Origin: Isurus oxyrinchus
Taxonomy: Eukaryota
DNA length: 64,000 nt
Direction of reading: 5' to 3'
NCBI GenBank assembly: GCA_026770705.1
Contig: JANJGN010000007.1
Location: 108,996,001-109,060,000, forward strand
The notes under the pieces are model-generated. The model was not told the DNA's origin, ran no database searches, and saw only the letters and a program-made list of their open reading frames with translations. Each line of letters begins with the position of its first letter. Position 1 is the stretch's first letter. Position numbers and translations under genes: made by a program. Positions 8,501-49,190 of this stretch are shown here, one piece after another.

Positions 8501-10590
8501 ATCTCAGACGGGAGAAGATGCCGTGTTTTACCGACTCATCGGAAGGCTATGGGCTACGATAATGCTTCACTCCCTAGTTCTTCTCTGAAGGATCAGCCTT
8601 GATTGATCAAGTGCCTGGAGTTGGGCTTACAACACGCGCTTACAGGAGGGAAAGTGTGCTACCACTAGGCCACGGCCGACCTTATACGTGCCCGGACCGA
8701 GGAGAGGGTTGCGGAAACCTTCGGGTATTTCCTGTTCTTGAAGCTTTCCTCTCAGTACATTGATCACTCATCCTATAATCTGCACAAATTCCCTCAAGAA
8801 ACGGATAGGTAATATGTGAATGTGTATAGTTCATCATTCGCCGCTGTTCTTATTTTCCCCGTATTAGTGTCTCTCATGCGCCAAAACAACCCATGAAATT
8901 AAAAATGTTCCCTTTGTTTGCATCAGCAATTGCGATGTTTCACCCACATTGCCAGCTGTATAAGTAATGCCAATACAATTATTCATGCCTGCAAAGTGAT
9001 TTACAGTCATGATTGGAATTAATTGAGAGAGTTTCTTTACGTCAATCATTCAATGCCCCTGCTGTTTATTGCTCGGGTTACAAGACGGGCGGCCGTTATG
9101 GTTTGGACTTCCTCTGTTCAGTGTGGGTTGTGAGGCTTTGACAATGCATTCTGAAGGTTGCGTCGGCTCGGCAACAGTGGGCATAGAAAGTCCGCAAAAA
9201 TTCATCTCCCATAAGCCAGCGGAATGCTTCAGCCATGCGCCTCCATTCACTTCGAAATAACGAAGTGGTACTGGAAAGTCAGGTTTCGATATTTGCTGCA
9301 AGGAACGATGTCAACTGTGAACATAATTGGCAAATGAACAAGTTGCAGTATAAGGGGAATAGTTACATAGCGATTAGTAATTGTCAGACTGAAAGAGTGT
9401 TTGATGAATATTCCAGACCCACCTCCAAACGGGAATTGAATAAATATTAAAGGTAAAATCAGTAGGCTTTTGGGGAGAAGCAGGGATGTGAGATTATTCT
9501 CCAGCTATTCCGAAGGGCAGGCAAAGCGCGATATTCGATTCTATGTTTCAATATTCTACAGATTCTTTTTTTCTTTATCATCCACATCGACCTGCATAGC
9601 AGTCTGTTTACTATCATAGCCGCCCTGAAATCGCATCTCCTTTCGGAATGCTTTGCTAAAGGTGAACAAATTCTAAATTCCAGAATAGACCTGATATCAA
9701 CTTTCTCCTTCGACTTTTCAGCAGATCCCCGAAATCAAGGAAAGACAGTTCCCCACGCATCTGAAATTAACCTGTCCGGGTTTTTTTTTGACTGCTCCCT
9801 TTGAAATCACTTCACTTAATTCCGGTAGACTGACTGTCACTTAAAACAAAAATAATGGAAGGGTTGGCACTGGAATACCACGAAACAGCTAATCGGGGAT
9901 AGGATGCATGGAATTTCCAGTTCCTTTGAAGAGGCATAGTCTGTACAGACAGTAATTTCTGTCTGGGTTTTCGCGTGAGCTTCCAGTTTCCAGCCATGCG
10001 AATTTCATAAGATCACAAGACTATTAAAATATTTGCAAGAGTAGGCCATTCTGCCCCTAAAGACACCATTCAATAAGCTCATGACTGATCTGATTGTGGC
10101 CTGAACTCCACTTTCCTGCTTTCCCCTCACAACACTTGAGTCCCTTGTCGATCAAAAGTCTTTCAAACTCAGCGTTGAATATATTCAGTGACCCAGCCAC
10201 CACTGCTCCCTGGGAGGAGAATTCCACGTACCAACGGTCCGCTGAGAAAATAAATTCCTCTCAATCCCCACCTTAAATGGGAGACTCGTTATTTATATGT
10301 TGATTCTCATAGGTCTACATTCTCCCACAAGGCGCATCGACCCTGACAAGCCTCCGCACCCCGCACCCCCGCCACCCCCCGCCACCTCCGCCAGAATCTT
10401 ATGTTTCAATAAGATCGCCTCGCATTCTTTTAAACACCAATGTGCATGGGACTAATCTGCTCAATCTCATTTTAAGGCAATTCCTTCATCCAAAGAATCA
10501 ACTTAGTGAACTTCTTCCAAAGGAAGTATATATCTGCTTAAGTAAGCAGAACAAAACTGTACACAATGCACTAGATACTGTCTCACCAAT

Positions 10591-12095
10591 ACAAAAACAG
10601 AATTATCTGGAAAAACTCAGCAGGTCTGGCAGCATCGGCGGAGAAGAAAAGAGTTGACGTTTCGAGTCCTCATGACCCTTCAACAGAACTAGGTGAATCC
10701 AAGGAAGGGGTGAAATATAAGCTGGTTTAAGGTGTGTGTGCGTGGGGGGGGGGGGGGGGGGGGGGTGGGGGGTGGGGGGCAGGGGGGGGGGCGCTTTTGG
10801 GTTGGGGGAGAGAAGTGGAGGGGGGGTGGTGTGGTTGTAGGGACAAACAGGCAGTGATAGAAGCAGATCATCACAGGATGTCACAGACAACAGAACAAAA
10901 GAACACAGGTGTTGAAGTTGGTGATATTATCTAAACGAATATGCTAATTAAGAATGGATGGAAGGGCACTCAAGGTACAGCTCTAGTAGGGGTAGGGGGA
11001 GCATAAAAGATTTAAAAATATTTAAAAATAATGGAAATAGGTGGGAAAAGAAAAATCTATATAATTTATTGGAAAAAACAAAAGGAAGGGGGAAGAAACA
11101 GAAAGGAGGTGGGGATGGAGGAGGGAGCTCAAGACCTAAAGTTGTTGAATTCAATATTCAGTCTGGAAGGCTGTAAAGTGCCTTGTCGGAAGATGAGGTG
11201 TTGTTCCTCCAGTTTGCGTTGGGCTTCACTGGAACCATGCAGCAAGCCAAGGACAGACATGTGGGCAAGAGAGCAGGGTGGAGTGTTAAAATGGCAAGCA
11301 ACAAGGAGGTTTGGGTCATTCTTGTGGACAGACCGCATGTGTTCTGCAAAGCGGTCGCCCAGTTTACGTTTGGTCTCTCCAATGTAGAGGAGACCACATT
11401 GGGAGCAACGACTGCAGTAGACTAAGTTGGGGGAAATGCAAGTGAAATGCTGCTTCAATTGAAAAGAGTGTTTGGACCCTTGGACGGTGAGGAGAGAGGA
11501 ACTGAAGGGGCAGGTGTTACATCTTTTATGTGGACATGGGGTGGTGCCATTGGAGGGGATTGAGGAGTAGAGGGTGATAGAGGAGTGGACCAGGGTGTCC
11601 TGGAGGGAATGATCCCTACGGAATGCCGACAGGGGGAGTGAAGGGAAGATATGTTTGGTGGTGGCATCATGCTTGAGTTGGCAGAAATGGCGGAGGATGA
11701 TCCTTTGAATGCGGAGGCCAGTGGGATGATAAGTGAGGACAAGGAGGACCCTATCATGTTCCTGGGAGGGAGGAGAAGGCGTGAGGGCAGATGCGCGGGA
11801 GATGGGCCGGACACGGTTGAGGGCCCTGTCAACGACCGTGGGTGTCCCTGCAACCACACCACCCCCCTCCATTTCTCTCTCCCCACCCAAACCCCCACCC
11901 CTCCCCCACACACACCTTAAACCAGCTTATATTTCACCCCTTCCTTGGATTCACCTAGTTCTGTTGAAGGGTCATGAGGACTCGAAACATCACGTCTTTT
12001 CTTCTTCACCAATGCTGCCAGACCTGCTGAGGCTTTCCAGGTAATTCTGTTTTTGGTTTGGATTTCCAGCATCCACAGTTTTTTTTGTTTTTATC
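10591..12095 (-). mobile_element. 5'-truncated Penelope-like retroelement with inverted terminal repeats and 14-bp TSD
   Basis: TSD actgtctcaccaat at 10577-10590 and 12096-12109; ~250-bp inverted pLTRs (10591-~10840 and ~11850-12095); internal GIY-YIG ORF. Confidence 0.92.
11129..11845 (-). pseudogene. Penelope RT C-terminus / Zn-finger linker / GIY-YIG endonuclease fragment
   Basis: VLTYHP, AFRR..SLQDTLVHS, CPHKRCNTC, FTCISPNLVYC..C..CGLLYIGETKR.L..RFAEH, VACHFN, RKLEEQHLI, LNIEF. Confidence 0.92.
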
Positions 12096-23066: not shown

Positions 23067-26000
23067 CTTTTAACACAATCTGAGAGAGATAATTTAATTT
23101 TTTTAAAACGTAAATTAGTAACAATTTATGGTAATGGGGCATAGCAATCATAAATATTTAATGCACTTTTAATAGCAATTAGAGAGATCATTTTGGTAGT
23201 TGAGGGATGCTATTGCAGGAACAAAACCTCTCCTGAGCAATTTTATTCAGAAAGTACCAGCGAAATCTTCCATTCCTGAGGTGTTGTTCTAACCAACACT
23301 TAATTAAGCATGAAAATCTCTCCCTCTGTCTCCTCGGGTGAATCCTGAAATCATCCTATTCCATATGGAGTTCTTCTGCTCCACTGATCAACACTCAAAA
23401 GAGCGCAACAGAGTCCAGACGATCTGCAGAAACATCTCGTTTTAATCATTAATAATCTGAGAATTTCGTGTTTTGTGTTTCATTAAAAAAAAGCGCTCGT
23501 GTTGTCTATTTTCTGTTATCAGTGAATATTGAGAAGACAGATTCTGCCAACATGTGCAGAATGCATCAAAACATGAGGGTTCTCTACTAACACTGCCTAA
23601 AATATGCTGTTAATCGTACAGATTGGAATTTATGCATTAACATTGATTGTACAACACCTTAGTTTCCGTGGTGAAGAATTCAAGTCGCGTTAATTTCAGC
23701 AAAGTAACTTTCTTCAGCGCGGGAACCAAGTGCTGGAATGTTACCACGTCATAAAAGGCTTATATTGGCAAGTTACGGGGTGTAGATTTTTTAAGAATCC
23801 ATACATCGAGGAAACTAAATCGGAGTTCATACTTGACGTAATTTCAGGCACTTGGTGAATTGAGTTTTGCGGCCTCAAGCAAGTTATCAGTGGGGAAAAG
23901 TGCACGAAATATGGTATGGACATGGGAACAGGAGTTGGCCATCTGTCCCCTCGTACCTGGCCCACCATCAATTAGATCATGGCTGCCATGTACCTCAAAG
24001 CAATTTGTCCAGTTTATCCCCATAATCCTTGATAGCCATTCCGAATGAAAATTGATCCATCCCAAAACTGAGAACTCGAATTGGCAATTTGGTGAGAAGG
24101 AACCTATCTCAACCTATTTATTAATTTCAGTCCAAGATTTAAGCATATGTACTATTTCAGTATCTTGCTTCAATAATAATGTTATCTGCATTCGGGAAAC
24201 ACTCATTGGATGAAACACTTCGAAATCGCATGATACTAATGAAGCAAATGACATTGACCTTGGGCCGTAGCGCATAACGCGTGATTGTAAATTGGGAGCT
24301 GATGCACTCCGTGTTCAATGGAAACGAAATTCCGAAGGTGCATAAATGGAATTTGGTATCACCAGTTTTAGCTCATCGATATTAAGGTCAAATTGCATAT
24401 ATCACACAGCTCAAAATTCGTCACGCCCGCTGCAATGACGGTTAGTACACAATACGTTGGCAACAATTAGCACAGCTAACAGATTTGTGACAATGTTCTA
24501 TTTTGCTATAATGCACTTGAGAATCGGTAGCACTAGCACGTAGAACATCAAATGAACTACTTCATTAATTCTTTAACACCAGCTCTCTTTCCGATATCGA
24601 TAAATATTTCGCTGTCGCAGTTCCAGCAAGAAAGATAGGGTATATGGAAACAATTACACCTCTGGCAACTCTCTGGAGTATTGGAGATTGATCTGATTTA
24701 TTTTAAACTACTTCAAAAGATTATCAGAAAAATAAACAAAATTGCTGATACAATGTGTATATTTTTCAAAACAAATATTAAAACATCATTTAAAGGGAAT
24801 CAAGAAAACTAACCGAATTAATAGCGCAATCAGAAAAATGGAAGAAACGAAGTTCAAGTTACGTGACGAATTTTGTTGCATTCGCCTTTTTCGCGAAGCA
24901 TGAAGCTGCAACGTAAACAAACCCAGCTCTGTAAAGAATGCGCTACAAGGTATGCGCAGAAGCAATGAACTTACCCTATTCTCAGTGCCGGACATCAAAC
25001 CTCGCAAATATTGCTCAAAATCATCAATCCCCTAGGATGCAGAAGCCACGGATTTAGACATAGGTAATGCATCCAATTGTACAATGTTTAGTGATGCATT
25101 TCCTTTATTAAGCCAAATTATACCAATAGGATTGACAATAGCATCTGTGATCGGAACTAGCTCGGTTTCGAATGAAAGCATAGGGAACGATATGTTTTTT
25201 TTTGCCGAAATCAACCCTGTTTCTGTTCGTTACTGGGCCCTGTTTCATAAACCGGTCCTAAAGTTGATTGGTGTTGAACGATAATTAATTTGGTGAGTAC
25301 AGCTGGAGGAGTGCTTCTTTCCGGTAATAGTGTGAAAGGGACATCCTAAACACAGAGTAAAGAATTGGAATGTGCTGTAGTTCTGGCGAGATCCTAAGAG
25401 CATTGGAAAAGACACTCCAGTATGAGAGGTGAGGGTCAGGCTAATATTGTGGGCAGGAAGCCGTGCAGACTCACTGTTTCATACACGTGCAGCTCTCTTG
25501 CGCCAAAACACGCAATCTTTAAGTTCCTGTAACATAACTGCGTTCAGATTGCAATTCTCCATAGGCACAAACGCTGAGGAAACTCCGAGATGTGAGAGCT
25601 GATTTCTTGTTTGAGTGTGTGCGTTTGTGTGTGTGTGGTGATAAAACTCTGGTAATTGCCCGAGTCGTCGTTTTGTTCAGTCGTTTCCTACAGCACACTT
25701 TGACCAACGTCATAAAATTATCCGTGCATTGAATGCTGATGCACATTATGCCAACCTATCGAGTTCGCTATGTTAATGTGATTAAGTACGGGTGCAACAA
25801 TGCAGTAACTAACATTCTACTGTAAATGAGAGGAGCTTGTTTGTCAGATCCATGATTGTGCAAATATAACAAAATGCTGGTCTTCGTCCATGATGGTACC
25901 GTACCGCATATACTGGCTTGCCTGCGTCATCCTTTTTAACCCACTTGTATTATCTCCCATCGGCGTTGAAGCTTACAAATGAGAAAATGCATTGAGAGGA

Positions 26001-42607: not shown

Positions 42608-42610
<3 letters not shown>

Positions 42611-42640
<30 letters not shown>
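42611..42640. repeat. (CA)n microsatellite
   Basis: Direct reading. Confidence 0.95.
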
Positions 42641-42642
<2 letters not shown>

Positions 42643-43399
42643 ACTCCTGCTGCAATCTTTCTCACCTGGCGAAAATTTCTAAAAACTCAAGGGTGTTATT
42701 GCCAACAAATATGAACCATCCTGTCAACGACCTCTGGTGCCTCCTTCTTTCCACTTGCGCGCCAGACCAAATCTCTCCTTCGCGTTCTACCACATCCTTA
42801 AAAGTCTCTTACTCAGGACCTTTTCTTTTTCCCCCAAAAAACCCTCTAAACACATCTTATCCAAGAACCAGTTCCTCTTCCAGAGGCTCTATGGGAAACG
42901 AACAACTGGTCATCAACATTTATCAGGTCCCATGATAGCATGTTAAGCGACTGTTTCTCTAAAGACTCTACGTCCCTGGAAACCATTATTGTCTCTCTGC
43001 AATAAACTCACATTCGCCCGCTCTCCCCTTACAAACTTGCACCACACCTCCAACCTCCTAGTCGCCCCTGAAGGCAGCGAAGTTGTTATTGGAGCAAAAA
43101 TCCTGTTTCAGTTTCTGCACTTAGTTCTCGAATCCACACACAATACATAACAGTGCAAAATCTGCCGTGAATTACTGTATCTGTGAATATTATCATGGTG
43201 CGTAACCTCACCTCATTTTTAGGTTCTCAACCTCTCTGCAGCCTTTGATAAGCCCAGGAAATCACGATTCGTCGGCCCTTCACCGCTGATCTCCACCCTG
43301 GTTAGACTACCGTTGTTTGCGGGGAAACAACACTGACTCGGTGAGTGATAGCAAATTCAGCATTGGAAAATCAACATTTTCCCCCACACCTTGCTGTCC

Positions 43400-43606
43400 G
43401 TAACATGTGTGGTTCCATATGTTCAATAATTGAAGAGGTTTTTTTTAAATCGCACTGAACTAACGAAGCTGAATTTCTCAACCCACAATTGCCGGATGTC
43501 AATTGTCATTGCGACGTCTCTGATAGGAAACTAACCGGAAATCCTTTTAAACAGTTGCAAGCTCGCAGTTACTGCAGAGAGTCAACAGTTGGATCCATTT
43601 TTAAGA
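43400..43606 (+). promoter_or_regulatory. Putative proximal promoter / 5' UTR of the VJ-C1 receptor
   Basis: RUNX TGTGGTT 43408-43414, ETS CCGGATGT 43492-43499 and ACCGGAAAT 43534-43542, GATA-like TGATAG 43521, and E-boxes CAGTTG just upstream of the ATG. Confidence 0.5.
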
Positions 43607-43661
43607 ATGACAACGTGTTTGGCATTTCTGTGCCTGATCTTCCGAGGGAGCTTTGACACAG
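43607..43661 (+). CDS. Exon 1, signal peptide MTTCLAFLCLIFRGSFDT
   Basis: agaATGa start, hydrophobic core, phase-1 donor G|gtaccg. Confidence 0.85.
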
Positions 43662-46600
43662 GTACCGGTTTATTCATTTGCTCAGTTACTCTAAACTGCT
43701 TCGGAAGGTTTTTTCATATTCATTTAACAAACCGCATTTCCTCTGTCTTGATTATGTTTTCCCCTTCCACCTTCGTGTATTAGCTAATACTGCTAACCTA
43801 TGTTTGACTATATTTCTGACAGCTGAGTGCCACACTTCGATCCGTGTGTCTCAAGCACCACATAAAGCGAATGTATCCAGAGGCGAGAATGTCACATTCT
43901 ACTGCATATTCCCCATTCTTCAAGACCAAGCCAGGGCACGGGTATTATGGTGGAAACATGGTGAGAATGAATACCTGGACAGAAACGCGGAGAAGAGAAG
44001 GAGGTTTGGTATGGAAAGCAAAGTGAGCGGTTTCTTTCAGTTATTGGACGCGAAATTACAAGACTCAGGAATTTATTACTGCTCCGTGATCCGTCGGGGA
44101 GTAGTTCGAGGAAATGGAACAGGATCACATCTAATTGTGCACGGTAAGTTTGGAACACAGGAAAGCAAAACCGGCATAAATATATCAAACACAACAATCG
44201 GGAATGTGCATCTTTTCTGTCAGTAAAAACGTAGTTATTAATACATTTCGCGATGTTATTTGTATATTCGTGTTCTCCATATGAAATGCTAAATATACAA
44301 ACAATGCCACGCGCAGAGTAGCGAATACCTAGCAATATAATCAAATATAGCATAACTATAAAGGCAATTTGTGCACCAAATTTATATAAGCTGCAACTCG
44401 GAATAAATTCTTAACATATAACTGACTGAAAATCTTATACATGAATGCGCCTTTCCCAACATTTACATGCCTATTAGCCTGGCTTTGTTAGTCTACCTGC
44501 CGCCATGAAGATTAATGTCCCTGAAACTAAATCTAACGTCATGATAGCGTTCGGATTTCAATGTCAATCTGCAGCTAACCCTTGACCAACAAATTCATTA
44601 AAGAGCTGGGGTTTGAAACATATAAGGTTGTCACCTCTCCTCTCAAACTTTTCAATAAATAAAACAATACAGAGATGCTGTGTTGCTGAAACCTCCTGAG
44701 GTTCAACTGAATATAATTCATTTAATCAATGGTCTTGATATGGATCTGAGATATTCGGGCATCGTTAAAGTTCTCCTTTAATCATCAAAAATACGCTTAC
44801 TTTTCGACATTGTCTTTCACTGCACATTAAACAGTGAAGATTCAGCGAGCCGACTTGCCCACCAAGGTTTAATTCCGCAGACGATGTAAACCAAACATTG
44901 GTTAGCCAATTATGCCGTTGGCGGGCCAAGGAATTCAAAGTCTTGACAGCCTGCTAAAGTCGACAGAATGGCGGTCTTTATGAGAGTTCTATATGATTTA
45001 GGCACAGGTGATGTGTGTAACAGTAGAAGGACAGGAAGCTGGAATTGTAATTTACCCGACTGCAAGAAAATAGGCCCAAAGTAAATCATAACTATATTTA
45101 ATTTATCCAAGTAGCGTACAGTAGCTCAACCTTGTTCATCTGTGTTCACAGCGACCCCAGCCCCACTAAGAATTGTCCCCAGGACATCTGAATGGAATTC
45201 ATCTACTGTTTTGACTCTGGTCTGTTATACGGCTGCCTTTTATCCAGCAAATGTCACCCTCACGTGGTATGAAAATGGTATCGAGACTACATTCGGAATA
45301 AACACCAGTAAAGTGCAGAACTCTGAGGGACTGTATGAAGTTTCTAGCTCTTTGGCTGAGACGCAGCCTGCCCGGAGCGACGCGAATTATACTTGCTTGG
45401 TCTTCCATAGCACCCTCAATACTCCAGCTGTTGTCACGTACAAGGTTTTTAAATCTAACCAAGGTAGGAGACCAACATTTCAAGAAGGAGAACCAGCTAC
45501 TGTTGAATTCATAGAGTCATACGTCATACGCTATGTGCATATTGAGAATCATGAAACTGTTCTACGGAAATCTGATGGGAAATATCAATGACATCTTTAA
45601 AATCTTGTCTTTACAGTGAACTGAATGTGATGTTTTGCAAAACCTGGTTGTACCTCCAGGCACACAAATATACTTGGTCAAACCGAAGTTATTTCCAAAT
45701 TCTTTTATTTCTTACGTAACAATATTAAATATCACCATTTATTTTTTAGTCTCATATTTCCTCACCTAAACGTTATGAATATTTTCATTTTCTATTTTCC
45801 CATGTTAAAAGTAGTTTCTTCTGACCATTGCCGACTCATCTTGCAGGAAGACCATCATCAGGAGCTGCAGACATGTTATTTGCGCACGAAAGCCTTGCGA
45901 AATAATTTCCGATATTGCCTCATGTTCGGCTACTTCCAGTGGAAAGTTTTGAACTAACCATCTGGCCAACTTCTCCTCCTCACCGCCCACAACGGGTTTA
46001 ACTGGGATGGGTCTCATATGGTTGCAGCATATTCGGTTCAATGCAGCATGTTGTTGACGACTCCCTGCATAGTGAGACGAATCAATGATACATTTTTTCA
46101 TTTACTTAAGGGTTGTAGGCGTCGATGCCTGGTCCACCATTTCTTGCTCATTCCTAATTGACCTTGAACGGAGTGGCTTTCAGGACATTTCAGAGGGCAG
46201 TTAAGAGTCAACCACGTCGTTGCTGATGCCCGTTTATATCCAATGGCAGCAATATTTTACGAGCAGCTGGTGACGTAGTGGTCATGTCTCTGGACTAGTA
46301 ATGCAGAGGCCTAGGATAATGCTGCTCGAAAAATACATACTTCAAAGCTAGTTTTAGTGATGTGCCATGACACTATAATCAATGGCCATAAAAAAAAACA
46401 TTTGGTTCACTAAAGGCATTCAGGGAAGGAAATCTGTCATCCTTTCCCGGTCTGGCTCCAGACCCACTGCAATGCGTTGAGATCCTTAAAAGGGTAGGGA
46501 TCTTCACAGATTAATCAGAAATGCGTCATCTTTTCGAGGAGAAAGCAAGTGCAGATATTTTAGCTAAAAATAACATTTTGTATTTAAATATTCTTGCTCG

Positions 46601-48891
46601 TTTTGAATACTGAGGTGTTAGTGAGAACAGCACTATAGTTTAAACAATACACTATCCTAGAACTTATTTTTAACTGAACATTCGTCAAAACATAATATTG
46701 CAATTAACCTTGCAGGTATTGTCCAGAAGTCACTCTACTATTGGATTCCAGTGTATGTGGTGCTTGGATTCGCGCTCCTGTTGTTTATGAGCGTCATTGG
46801 AGGACGGTACCGAATGCAGAAGAATGAAGGTAAGATCTGCTGTGAACCCTTGATTTTTTGCATAAAACCTCAGGAGGAATGACAGTTACCGGTAACACAG
46901 GAATAAAAGGGAAGCCGATAAGGAGTTAAAGTTGAAAACACTCTTAATGTTTTCAGGGAGCATCGATTGTTGAAAATATGCCTTGTAATATATAGAATTC
47001 TAATAAAAATTTAAACTATTATCTAGATGTTTATAAAGATATTTTTCCTTTGCAAAATGCTAAACGAAAGGCACCTTGGCACGCAATCACTTTCCAAACC
47101 ATTACGTGTTGGAAGCGCAATTGGCATGATGTGCGGCTTCCGCCGGTAATGGTTGTAGAGAACAAAAACAGAATTACCTGGAAAAACTCAGCAGGTCTGG
47201 CAGCATCGGCGGAGAAGAAAACAGTTGACGTTTCGAGTCCTCATGACCCTTCGACAGAACTTGTAGACAGAACTCTTTTCTTCTCCGCCGATGCTGCCAG
47301 ACCTGCTGAGTTTTTCCAGGTAATTCTGTTTTTGTTTTGGATTTCCAGCATCCGCAGTTTTCTTTGTTTTTATAATGGTTGTACAGGTTGATACATGAGA
47401 AACAGGAGCAGGATCAGGTCATACAACTCCCCGAGCCTGCTCCACCATCATGGCTGATGTTCGGCACTCTTCAGCTGCATTTCGATGTCCTTTGATTCCT
47501 GCAGCATCCGAAATATTAACTTAGTTTGCGCGAAATATTCAAAACATAATCTACTGCTGCTTGGAGTTCAAAACCTTTCCGCACAGGTCAAAGCTGAAAA
47601 CGCATGTTGGGCTTTTTATAACTATAGACATATCTTTGTAATGTTTGAGATGAAAAATAAGTTTAAAAATACTGAAAATGCTGCGGGAGCGAGTAGGGTG
47701 GTGGTGGGTGGGGGCGGGGGGTGAGGTGGGTGCGGTTGGGGAGGGGGTCTCAGCAGGTCTGGCAACATCTTTGGAGAGATAAATGCGGTTAGTGTTTCGA
47801 GTCCCTATGCCTCTTCATCAGTGATTATTTCGATATTAAATTTTATTTCTTCCCAGGTAAACAAGAACATTTAACAGGCAGAGACCGTCGCGAGGAGCTG
47901 GTGCGTTGATTCATCGACAGTTTGTTGAATTATCAAAGAAGATTGATATAATGGAAAGTTAATATCACCATCAGATCAGACCAGTTTAAATACATTTATT
48001 AAAAGTATTTGCCCGATCTGAGAGAGATAGTCAAGTCAGATATAGAAATTTATTTGCCACCTAGTCCGTTGCTGGCAAACATTGGTAAATGCTTAGAAAA
48101 TAAAACCACCTATTTCGTTGAAAATGTACCTGGTTAACAACTATCCATAAATGTATCTATCCTTTTGGAATCGAAAATGAATTTTACGTATTGAGACTGC
48201 TGTCCATTTAAACATTCCTGTAAGGCTTCTATCGAGTAAACATTGGCAGGTTTAAATAGTTGGTATAGTAGCCACAGGCTCTTAATATTCGAACTTATGT
48301 AACGATCAATGCATTATCGTTTGCGCACTTCAGCTCGAGCCCAGGTTAACCTGTTCAATGCTTGAGCAGCGCCACGCAAACTGGTGAACATAATGAACCA
48401 GCTAGGTAACTAGAATTTTTACTTATGGTCCATTCAGGGAGCAGAGTCCGACTTTGTGGAATATGCGGCATTAGACTTGATGAAAACTCCAAGGCGCAAA
48501 CGTGAAAAGGTGAGTATGTTTAGGTAGGGCCGAGTAATATATCAGATAAACAAATATCACCAATATAACATCAACGGTCGTGTGATAGGCAGGGAAAATG
48601 TTTCTGTTGATTTTGACCGTACGTTGTCTCTAAGGTTATTATGTGTCCTTCTGATGAATGTTTTGAACAGGTTCCAGAGAACTTGCAAAACGGCAAATAA
48701 ACAATATTTTCAAACTGACCTTACAGACCCAACAATGCATAGCCGGTGCCGATCTGCTGTACGCGAGTGTAACACAAACAGGCCCAGGCAGAGGTAAAAC
48801 TAACGAAAGAAGTACGGAGTATGCAGAGCTGCGGATAAAAACACAAGGTGGAGTAAGAGAGGCTGTCTATACAGAAGCAAAAATCAACTAG
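43607..48891 (+). CDS. Ig-superfamily type I receptor: leader-V(J)-C1-TM-ITIM tail (NKp30/NCR3-like V, SIRP-like tail), ~360 aa, 7 exons: join(43607-43661,43823-44143,45152-45463,46716-46829,47857-47900,48438-48509,48727-48891)
   Basis: All introns are GT-AG with phases 1,1,1,1,0,0 and give one open frame of 1083 nt; canonical V and C1 motifs, a hydrophobic TM and tyrosine motifs are present. Confidence 0.9.
43823..44143 (+). CDS. Exon 2, V-set Ig domain with in-exon J-like G strand
   Basis: ttctgacag| ... VSQAP..VSRGENVTFYC..VLWWK..QLLDAKLQDSGIYYC..RGNGTGSHLIVH G|gtaagt; 321 nt. Confidence 0.95.
45152..45463 (+). CDS. Exon 3, C1-set Ig domain
   Basis: ttcacag| TLVCYTAAFYPANVTLTWYENG..NSEGLYEVSSSL..YTCLVFHSTL ..G|gtagga; 312 nt. 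Confidence 0.95.
46716..46829 (+). CDS. Exon 4, transmembrane
   Basis: cttgcag| GIVQKSLYYWIPVYVVLGFALLLFMSVIGGRYRMQKNE G|gtaaga; no charged residue in the helix. Confidence 0.9.
47161..47372. mobile_element. Young palindromic Penelope-derived element in intron 4, with TSD
   Basis: ~60-bp perfect inverted arms (47162-47221 / 47277-47336); TSD taatggttgta(g/c)ag at 47147-47160 and 47373-47386. Confidence 0.9.
47857..47900 (+). CDS. Exon 5, cytoplasmic GKQEHLTGRDRREEL
   Basis: tttcttcccag| ... CTG|gtgcgt; bridges phase 1 to phase 0. Confidence 0.8.
48438..48509 (+). CDS. Exon 6, cytoplasmic, ITIM VEYAAL
   Basis: cattcag| GAESDFVEYAALDLMKTPRRKREK |gtgagt. Confidence 0.88.
48727..48891 (+). CDS. 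Exon 7, cytoplasmic, with LLYASV, TEYAEL, AVYTEA and stop
   Basis: cttacag| TQQCIAGADLLYASVTQTGPGRGKTNERSTEYAELRIKTQGGVREAVYTEAKIN*; the acceptor is conserved in the paralogue at 360. Confidence 0.82.
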   Translation, partial: TQQCIAGADLLYASVTQTGPGRGKTNERSTEYAELRIKTQGGVREAVYTEAKIN

Positions 48892-49184: not shown

Positions 49185-49190
49185 AATAAA
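49185..49190 (+). terminator. Polyadenylation signal AATAAA
   Basis: First AATAAA ~295 nt after the stop codon. Confidence 0.6.

Follow-up and report, generated by a model that had tools for sequence, protein, structure and literature searches.

A stretch of 64,000 nucleotides of Isurus oxyrinchus DNA (contig JANJGN010000007.1, positions 108,996,001 to 109,060,000; hereafter the window) contains a gene which probably encodes a non-rearranging inhibitory surface receptor, SIRP-alpha-like in its action and belonging to a tandem paired-receptor family of cartilaginous fishes. As read from the sequence, the gene is composed of seven exons: a leader, a V-J exon, a C1 exon, a transmembrane (TM) exon free of charged residues and three predicted tail exons, with a product of about 360 aa. 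The first-pass annotation of the window had marked a germline-joined J-like strand at 44075–44143 and omitted the C1 exon, the uncharged TM exon and the three tail exons bearing immunoreceptor tyrosine-based inhibitory motifs (ITIMs).

The V exon (43823–44143, forward strand, 321 nt) is preceded by AG, followed by GT and has phase 1 at both ends. This single V-J exon encodes a short V-set domain (Pfam V-set, 31.2 bits; cut-off 26) with a Trp-to-Cys distance of 44 aa and three N-glycosylation sequons. The F-strand YYC and the loop equivalent to complementarity-determining region 3 (CDR3) span 44074–44112: the YYC codons lie at 44074–44082, the annotated start 44075 falling one base inside the first Tyr codon, and the ten-residue loop SVIRRGVVRG follows at 44083–44112. 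The germline J-like G strand (44113–44143), reading NGTGSHLIVH at 44113–44142, runs into the donor GT at 44144; exon coordinates and splice sites thus bear out the annotated course from YYC through the loop to a phase-1 donor. In the J register, Asn (44113–44115) occupies the F/W site of FGxG and forms an N-G-T sequon, GTGS corresponds to G-x-G-T, and HLIV to x-L-x-V. An AlphaFold model of the domain (85-row alignment, pLDDT 92.5) predicts a G strand interrupted at G98-T99-G100, between strands 93–97 and 101–105, as in a J-type bulge, in agreement with the annotated G-x-G bulge lacking F/W. Since these three residues are invariant in eight aligned sequences, the motif is not a chance one. The F-G strand is joined in the same way in genomic contigs of a relative from two studies (runs X1 and X2).

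The remaining exons, all on the forward strand, extend this domain to a receptor. The leader exon (43607–43661), recognized by its splice sites and frame, contains the ATG and a split leader ending in a phase-1 donor, with a hydrophobic sequence resembling the leaders of proteins P0002, P0004 and P0008. The C1-set exon (45152–45463, phase 1 to 1; Pfam C1-set, 51.5 bits, E 1.3e-13) shares 49–70% identity with relatives; a family profile scan found no second C1 in the gene, and relatives likewise have one. The TM exon (46716–46829) encodes a helix without charged residue, scoring 27.3 bits on the family TM profile against 5.4 for the best of the reversed control. Tail exon 1 (47857–47900, phase 1 to 0) is predicted from its AG and GT and ends in EEL, as in P0002, P0004, P0005 and P0008. 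Tail exon 2 (48438–48509; tblastn to P0004, 59%) carries the ITIM VEYAAL, and the last coding exon (48727–48891; tblastn to the P0005 tail, E 2.9e-11, 56%) carries the ITIM LLYASV, TEYAEL resembling an ITSM (immunoreceptor tyrosine-based switch motif), a fourth Tyr in AVYTEA and the stop; AATAAA follows at 49185. The frame is kept through the three predicted exons of this tail of about 100 residues, and motif positions are kept in horn shark, sevengill, smooth-hound and elephant-shark relatives. ITIM-like hexamers occur by chance at a rate of 0.0017 per residue in six frames.

A search with the V exon gave 183 representatives at E ≤ 0.001, the best 150 of which were listed, and seven shark proteins match it at 49–69% identity; against shark relatives the V-J domain is 53–70% identical. 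Searching with a V-only profile was swamped by multi-domain proteins. A family profile, built from family members, set apart 110 domains scoring above 71.5 bits from all others, and members outside the profile build (e.g., P0197–P0207) also exceed this value. The 110 domains collapsed to 94; setting aside one without a callable Cys and seven without G-x-G left 86 that were counted. All 35 nameable clusters are chondrichthyan, from 11 species (six sharks, four rays and Callorhinchus), the remaining clusters being unnamed, so that some of these may belong to bony fish. One chromosome-size sequence per species carries the members: eight clusters lie on a 66.5 Mb contig in Heptranchias, five on 99.7 Mb in Heterodontus, four on 18.1 Mb in Callorhinchus and four on 85.9 Mb in Hypanus. 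RefSeq labels them variously as SIRP-alpha-like (the commonest), SIRP-beta-like, tapasin-related, NCR3LG1-like, CD276 or lambda-light-chain-like.

Members share a WWK-type C strand and a short C′-D region, with 39–45 residues from Trp to Cys, and the loop is ten residues long in 71 of the 86 domains, a length found in chimaera, sharks and rays alike. Asn occupies the J Phe/Trp site in 66/86 and Phe or Trp in none (0/86); an N-G-[ST] sequon is present there in 58/86. In immunoglobulin (Ig) and T-cell receptor (TCR) domains, the V-V interface is where the J Phe/Trp packs. A sequon at this site would put a glycan on the surface used for Ig/TCR V pairing, and given that position the V of the receptor is likely to function unpaired.

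ITIM-like motifs occur in 37 of 69 TM-bearing family proteins (40 further models lack a TM). Another seven of the 69, one of them doubtful, have a C1 domain but lack an ITIM, and their TM helix has a basic residue at its start. Judging from these sequences, the short-tailed members with Arg at the TM edge are likely the paired-receptor partners of the ITIM-bearing ones. Eight short-tailed members (P0026, P0044, P0090, P0105, P0125, P0135, P0199 and P0201) have an acidic residue or Asn followed by His (D/E/N-H) just after the TM helix, and most of them have Arg at the helix start; the D/E/N-H pair may be an adaptor-pairing signature. The Scyliorhinus torazame RefSeq model P0001 is likely a fusion, in which an inhibitory-type V is followed by the V-C1-TM of an Arg-bearing neighbor.

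Receptors with ITIMs and ITSMs are phosphorylated on tyrosine and then recruit SHP-1/2. We hypothesize that the single V domain of the window receptor uses its variable FG loop face to bind a self ligand on cell surfaces, or a microbial mimic of such a ligand. The ITIM/ITSM tyrosines of the tail would be phosphorylated by Src-family kinases and would then recruit SHP-1/SHP-2, which would dampen leukocyte activation in the manner of SIRP-alpha. The opposing, activating signal may come from short-tailed paralogues with Arg at the TM edge, acting through an adaptor with an ITAM (immunoreceptor tyrosine-based activation motif).

As to the ligand, the loop had been annotated as Arg-rich and an acidic partner proposed. 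Three Arg are indeed present in the window loop, and with the loop net positive in 61/86 family domains there is a real, if mild, basic bias. The proposed ligand fares less well, as the basic count varies: it ranges from 0 to 3 among ten close relatives, reaches three in 12/86 family loops, and one of the three Arg reads His in a relative's DNA. For the whole window V the charge is +6, where the family median is near +3. The ligand may be acidic, yet conservation gives no indication of this.

Family V domains were placed in a 75-row maximum-likelihood tree of 38 family and 37 other domains from 208 proteins, hand-picked to span subgroups. The 38 family rows make up one side of a branch (98/96), apart from NCR3 (99/90) and from the lungfish SIRP-like, NITR-like and Ig light chain (IgL)-like rows. 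The approximately unbiased (AU) tests used hand-picked sets of 16 and 20 rows over 110 columns, with lungfish and bichir stand-ins as the SIRP-like rows and an IgL-like stand-in, not shark IgL/TCR V, on the Ig side. In the tree the window V falls in a clade separate from the IgL-like rows, but grouping it with the IgL-like stand-in is not rejected by the AU test (p 0.21). Protein P0148 has a V domain with a short C′-D region and a YCLFP motif outside the family clade; a sister place for it is not rejected (p 0.30).

The first-pass annotation favored a never-split VJ gene over a rejoined shark Ig gene, arguing from a missing recombination signal sequence (RSS). The observation itself holds: neither CACAGTG nor CACTGTG occurs in the V exon or in 43000–46000, and no relic RSS stands above background. 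On each side, the best RSS-like score in the loop has 7/16 mismatches, which is also the commonest value among 5000 random 38-nt segments of this stretch. A first scan had returned 17 sites with at most four mismatches in 64 kb, including one at 43831, near the exon start and not at a coding end; it was rejected as chance. The argument fails, however, because no RSS is kept in a RAG coding joint either, and the absence of one cannot separate unsplit from rejoined genes. The never-split reading draws its support instead from the fixed loop length across three lineages, the lack of F/W in 86 domains, the family's own V clade and the ITIM tail.

Suppose, alternatively, that the family descends from a single ancient germline V-J join that RAG made in a TCR or Ig light chain gene, the ITIM tail and the multiplication coming afterwards. 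The light-chain-like layout (L-VJ-C1 with phase-1 introns) would suit such an origin, and the missing RSS is equally compatible with it. The C1 search is led by UrIg2 and Ig C domains; in AU tests, sisterhood of the family with IgL-like rows is not rejected (p 0.27), as is the case for the window V mentioned above. Light chains are also the top Foldseek matches of the P0008 model, albeit with rmsd near 9 and about 20% identity. The best antibody match of the window V, however, reaches only E 2.4e-4, whereas an IgL-like control with four domains has 368 matches under 1e-25; this control, P0139, has its four light-chain-like V-J domains joined and arranged in tandem, with FGQG, and matches antibody light-chain constructs. 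The J site is without Phe/Trp in all 86 domains, and the WWK-type C strand and short C′-D region seem not to be an Ig/TCR framework. A TM helix with an ITIM tail of about 100 residues is unlike a secreted chain or a short tail signaling through CD79/CD3. With one fixed loop length throughout all three chondrichthyan lineages, an apparently non-Ig framework and the ITIM tail, we regard a rejoined Ig or TCR gene as highly improbable, although the tree would accommodate one very old join.

The strand had further been described as NKp30-type, with the spacing of human NKp30. The quoted segment is correct: the PDB chain reads C-RVEVLGLGVG-TGNGTRLVV, with ten residues from Cys to the F/W site. The loop length is accordingly shared, and NCR3 (NKp30) and the window gene are further alike in a single-exon VJ with G-x-G and no F/W. 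The likeness to NKp30 ends there. The window V has no reciprocal match with NKp30, whereas in PDB searches the controls P0152 (bichir) and P0074 (horn shark) match human NKp30 only (1.7e-14 and 1.4e-15); P0152 clusters with a PRRC2A-labelled model. The window V is about five residues shorter in the C′-D region (Trp-to-Cys 44 versus 48–52 in NCR3). Joining it to NCR3 is rejected by the AU test (p 0.0017), and the NCR3 rows form their own clade. NCR3 consists of V domains only, with a TM Arg, while the window gene has a C1 domain, a neutral TM and an inhibitory tail with ITIMs. In horn shark, NCR3 lies on a 74.5 Mb sequence and the family on the 99.7 Mb one; shark NCR3 genes are listed on major histocompatibility complex (MHC) chromosomes in the accessible part of the PMC10751288 supplement, where the sawfish MHC chromosome list contains no SIRP-alpha-like or tapasin-related name. 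Membership of the window gene in NCR3 is thereby refuted by the missing reciprocal match, the AU test, the separate clade, the C1 domain and the neutral TM. The wider proposal, a member or close sister of NCR3 with an acquired C1 domain and inhibitory tail, could call on a sisterhood of family and NCR3 that is not rejected (p 0.17), on the TM-edge Arg of activating paralogues, as in bichir NCR3, and on NKp30 being among the tied structural matches (Foldseek rank 5; Z 13.0, rmsd 2.7, 101 aligned). In view of the sequence, tree and chromosome data, we consider this quite unlikely.

Structural superposition, which the annotation had suggested as a check, does match NKp30 to the V model but does not discriminate: VNAR, NCAM, TCR-beta, CD79b, PD-1 and NKp30 fall within about one Z unit (13.0–14.1), and Foldseek places SIRP-alpha V at ranks 31 and 42. 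Fold searches with this predicted model do not rank the kin of the V. A homodimer prediction for the P0008 ectodomain, with the alignment not used, scored 0.00 and 0.01 (mark 0.32) and is evidence neither way.

The best phmmer match of the window V is PD-L1 (E 4e-5), with NKp30 and SIRP absent among 60 matches at E ≤ 0.01. This match might point to a B7-type V-C1 ligand, similar to B7-H6, in place of a receptor, and CD276 and NCR3LG1-like are among the RefSeq names. Both domains of the P0008 model can also be superposed on B7-H6 (193 aligned, Z 15.1, rmsd 4.1), with MHC II and other structures giving tied matches; the inter-domain angle of that model is, however, unreliable (pTM 0.59). B7-H6, PD-L1 and tapasin are all absent from the 60 best matches of the family profile, and multi-ITIM tails and Arg-bearing partner forms are traits of receptors. 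We consider a ligand of this type very unlikely.

Searched against PDB, the family profile places SIRP-alpha third overall and first among non-antibody matches, at 112.7 bits (V+C1 67.1; domain 3 46.3), and among the Atlas feature matches of P0008, SIRP-alpha clusters come first (0.97). One could go further and take the family for the cartilaginous-fish branch of SIRP proper, one C1 fewer and reading CD47, which would add orthology to the proposed mechanism. No non-antibody receptor matches the profile better than SIRP-alpha and -gamma (ranks 3 and 7), the domain 3 alignment shares a VPPT-L start and an FYP..L.LTW..NG core, and paired forms with a four-tyrosine tail as well as the Atlas match and the prevailing RefSeq names are in line with this. 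The family nevertheless has one C1, not two, and a Trp-to-Cys distance of 44 in the window V versus 55 in SIRP. The window V lacks a SIRP match at E ≤ 0.01, whereas the control P0112, a lungfish SIRP-like protein, matches SIRP-alpha first, at 5e-18. An MHC II C1 scores equally well on the family C1 profile, and the accessible part of PMC13262535 places the SIRP family at Tetrapoda. The AU tests with the SIRP-like stand-ins and the tied light-chain scores, both given below, also speak against orthology. Orthology with SIRP is possible but, on this evidence, rather doubtful.

Several results weigh against the SIRP-alpha-like inhibitory receptor itself. A placement of the family beside SIRP-like V is marginally rejected (p-AU 0.016; 0.036 with bichir rows), and sisterhood with NITR-like rows (p 0.31) is as little rejected as that with NCR3 or IgL-like rows. 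Lambda and kappa light chains reach 66.6 and 65.6 bits on the same V+C1 stretch, and a lizard MHC class II C1 reaches 50.3 bits on the family C1 profile. A residue other than Asn stands at the J site in 20/86 domains, and glycosylation is predicted. Neither ITIM nor basic TM residue is present in 25 of the 69 TM-bearing models, many of which seem cut short. Finally, the receptor is known from DNA alone, its tail exons being predicted from splice sites and homology.

Other parts of the window contain remnants of paralogues. Tail exons of an upstream paralogue lie on the forward strand at 50–151 and 360–480 (tblastn 59% over 27 aa, E 5e-4; splice sites read); this tail looks decayed, as the exon at 360–480 has a stop and a frame shift before an ITSM-like motif. 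A weak C1 remnant with a stop and a frame shift (9707–9936, forward strand) matches the second, activating-type C1 of P0001 in two tblastn pieces (E 5.5e-4), and its profile scan score is not above the reversed control. On the reverse strand, a V remnant with stops (24403–24693) was found by tblastn (E 4.8e-5) and scores 10.8 bits on the V profile, compared with 6.7 for the best reversed control. Three decayed relatives would match the pattern of a birth-and-death cluster. Pfam searches of 72 of the 100 window open reading frames of at least 85 aa revealed no neighboring gene, with three sub-threshold matches. High-copy shark repeats lie at 47161–47373, 10586–10690, 11957–12094 and 46182–46456, one inverted pair being located within the TM-tail intron, and a CA microsatellite (42610–42641) lies about 1 kb upstream of the ATG.

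Among the contigs of the relative's DNA, runs X1, X2 and X5 span introns, and X7 comprises repeats only. The V exon is partly covered in window positions 43823–44151 with 88% likeness, 9 of 93 bases differing, compared with 38 of 1165 in an intron piece. The relative's V exon is thus about 10% different, with three amino-acid changes in the FG loop, and the next intron about 3%. This hints at faster change of the V than of the intron; orthologue and paralogue are indistinguishable here, and the comparison is not counted as evidence.

We found no literature account of this shark cluster; coverage of the specialist literature is partial, and an earlier mention is possible. A term search of the PMC3964593 main text and zip supplement gave no SIRP, ITIM or NKp30 passage beyond one reference. 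Provisionally, we treat the family as undescribed; the novelty lies in recognizing the family and not in the sequence, because RefSeq already contains the genes, under assorted automatic names. In reedfish, the PMC10751288 supplement, as far as accessible, lists SIRP-alpha-like, tapasin-related and NCR3LG1-like names among C-type lectin natural killer (NK) receptor genes on chr12 (7.4–12.5 Mb). Judged by gene names alone, this cluster is possibly the bony-fish counterpart of the shark family.

We speculate, with less than even confidence, that the genes form a large, so far undescribed germline paired-receptor cluster with a minimal antigen-receptor-chain layout (leader, unsplit VJ exon, one C1, TM), which predates the split of chimaeras and sharks, lies off the MHC chromosome and uses an N-glycan at the J Phe/Trp site to keep its V unpaired. 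Unsplit VJ genes are candidates for the gene entered by the RAG transposon. If the speculation is true, the family would be a living model of how a pre-RAG VJ-C1 gene functioned, and possibly the root of SIRP self-recognition, otherwise dated to tetrapods and lungfish. It would also mean that the oldest animals having adaptive immunity possess a large repertoire of innate receptors. Two questions become testable: is self-recognition of the SIRP-CD47 type older than bony vertebrates, and did the J Phe/Trp site see a gain or a loss of V-V pairing?

Among known systems, the shark unsplit VJ genes under discussion in the literature consulted are NCR3, which has V only, and UrIg/UrIg2, with their many C domains; to these the family adds a plain, many-copy VJ-C1-TM layout in inhibitory and likely activating forms. 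Joined-VJ proteins listed in PMC11599192 include CD79, NITR, SIRP, CD8, NKp30 and PRARP; according to that source, G-x-G without the full J consensus is common, so the motif alone is ordinary. UrIg/UrIg2 and the window gene are alike in being shark genes with one VJ exon, a split leader and C1 domains, and UrIg2 tops the C1 search. The UrIg layout is, however, VJ followed by three or more C1, and UrIg2 has up to 9–11 C domains, dimerizes and is a single gene near IgH/TCR, against one C1 in the window gene; a term search found no mention of ITIM in the paper on these genes (PMC12227049). The front half of the UrIg2 V fails to align with the family profile (−0.8 bits).

PRARP has a VJ-C1-TM layout with ITIM/ITSM, and chicken PRARP and Xenopus VJ-C1 genes resemble the window gene in combining VJ-C1-TM with an inhibitory motif. 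The family might be the shark counterpart of such genes, already catalogued by the Flajnik/Ohta or Zhao groups, given that several tetrapod VJ-C1 genes, PRARP by name, are known according to the accessible part of PMC10751288. None of the 35 named members, however, comes from tetrapods or bony fish. The same part of that source places PRARP among the MHC VJ genes, while the shark family lies off the NCR3 chromosome in horn shark; the tetrapod genes are reported as few and some as MHC-linked, unlike the many-copy shark family. We find this identity unlikely.

Teleost NITRs are paired receptors in tandem arrays that have J-like strands in the V and tails with ITIMs. NITR-like rows resemble the family in a C-A-V-x-x-x-G-x-I loop, but FGxG is retained in NITRs and their second domain is of the I type, whereas the window gene has Asn at the F site, a C1-set second domain and a separate clade.

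SIRPs combine inhibitory ITIM/ITSM members with activating members having a basic TM residue. SIRP-alpha/beta and the shark family are alike in a joined V-J with G-x-G and no F/W, C1-set domains, ITIM/ITSM-type tail tyrosines, activating partners and a tandem cluster. Apart from its second C1 and longer Trp-to-Cys distance, SIRP differs in a loop of 13 residues (SIRP-alpha chain) instead of ten and in having no Asn sequon at the F/W site. Its known range comprises tetrapods (PMC13262535, accessible part) and the lungfish SIRP-like protein P0112. By analogy, SIRP appears to be the closest working model of the window receptor, although this likeness is not unique to it.

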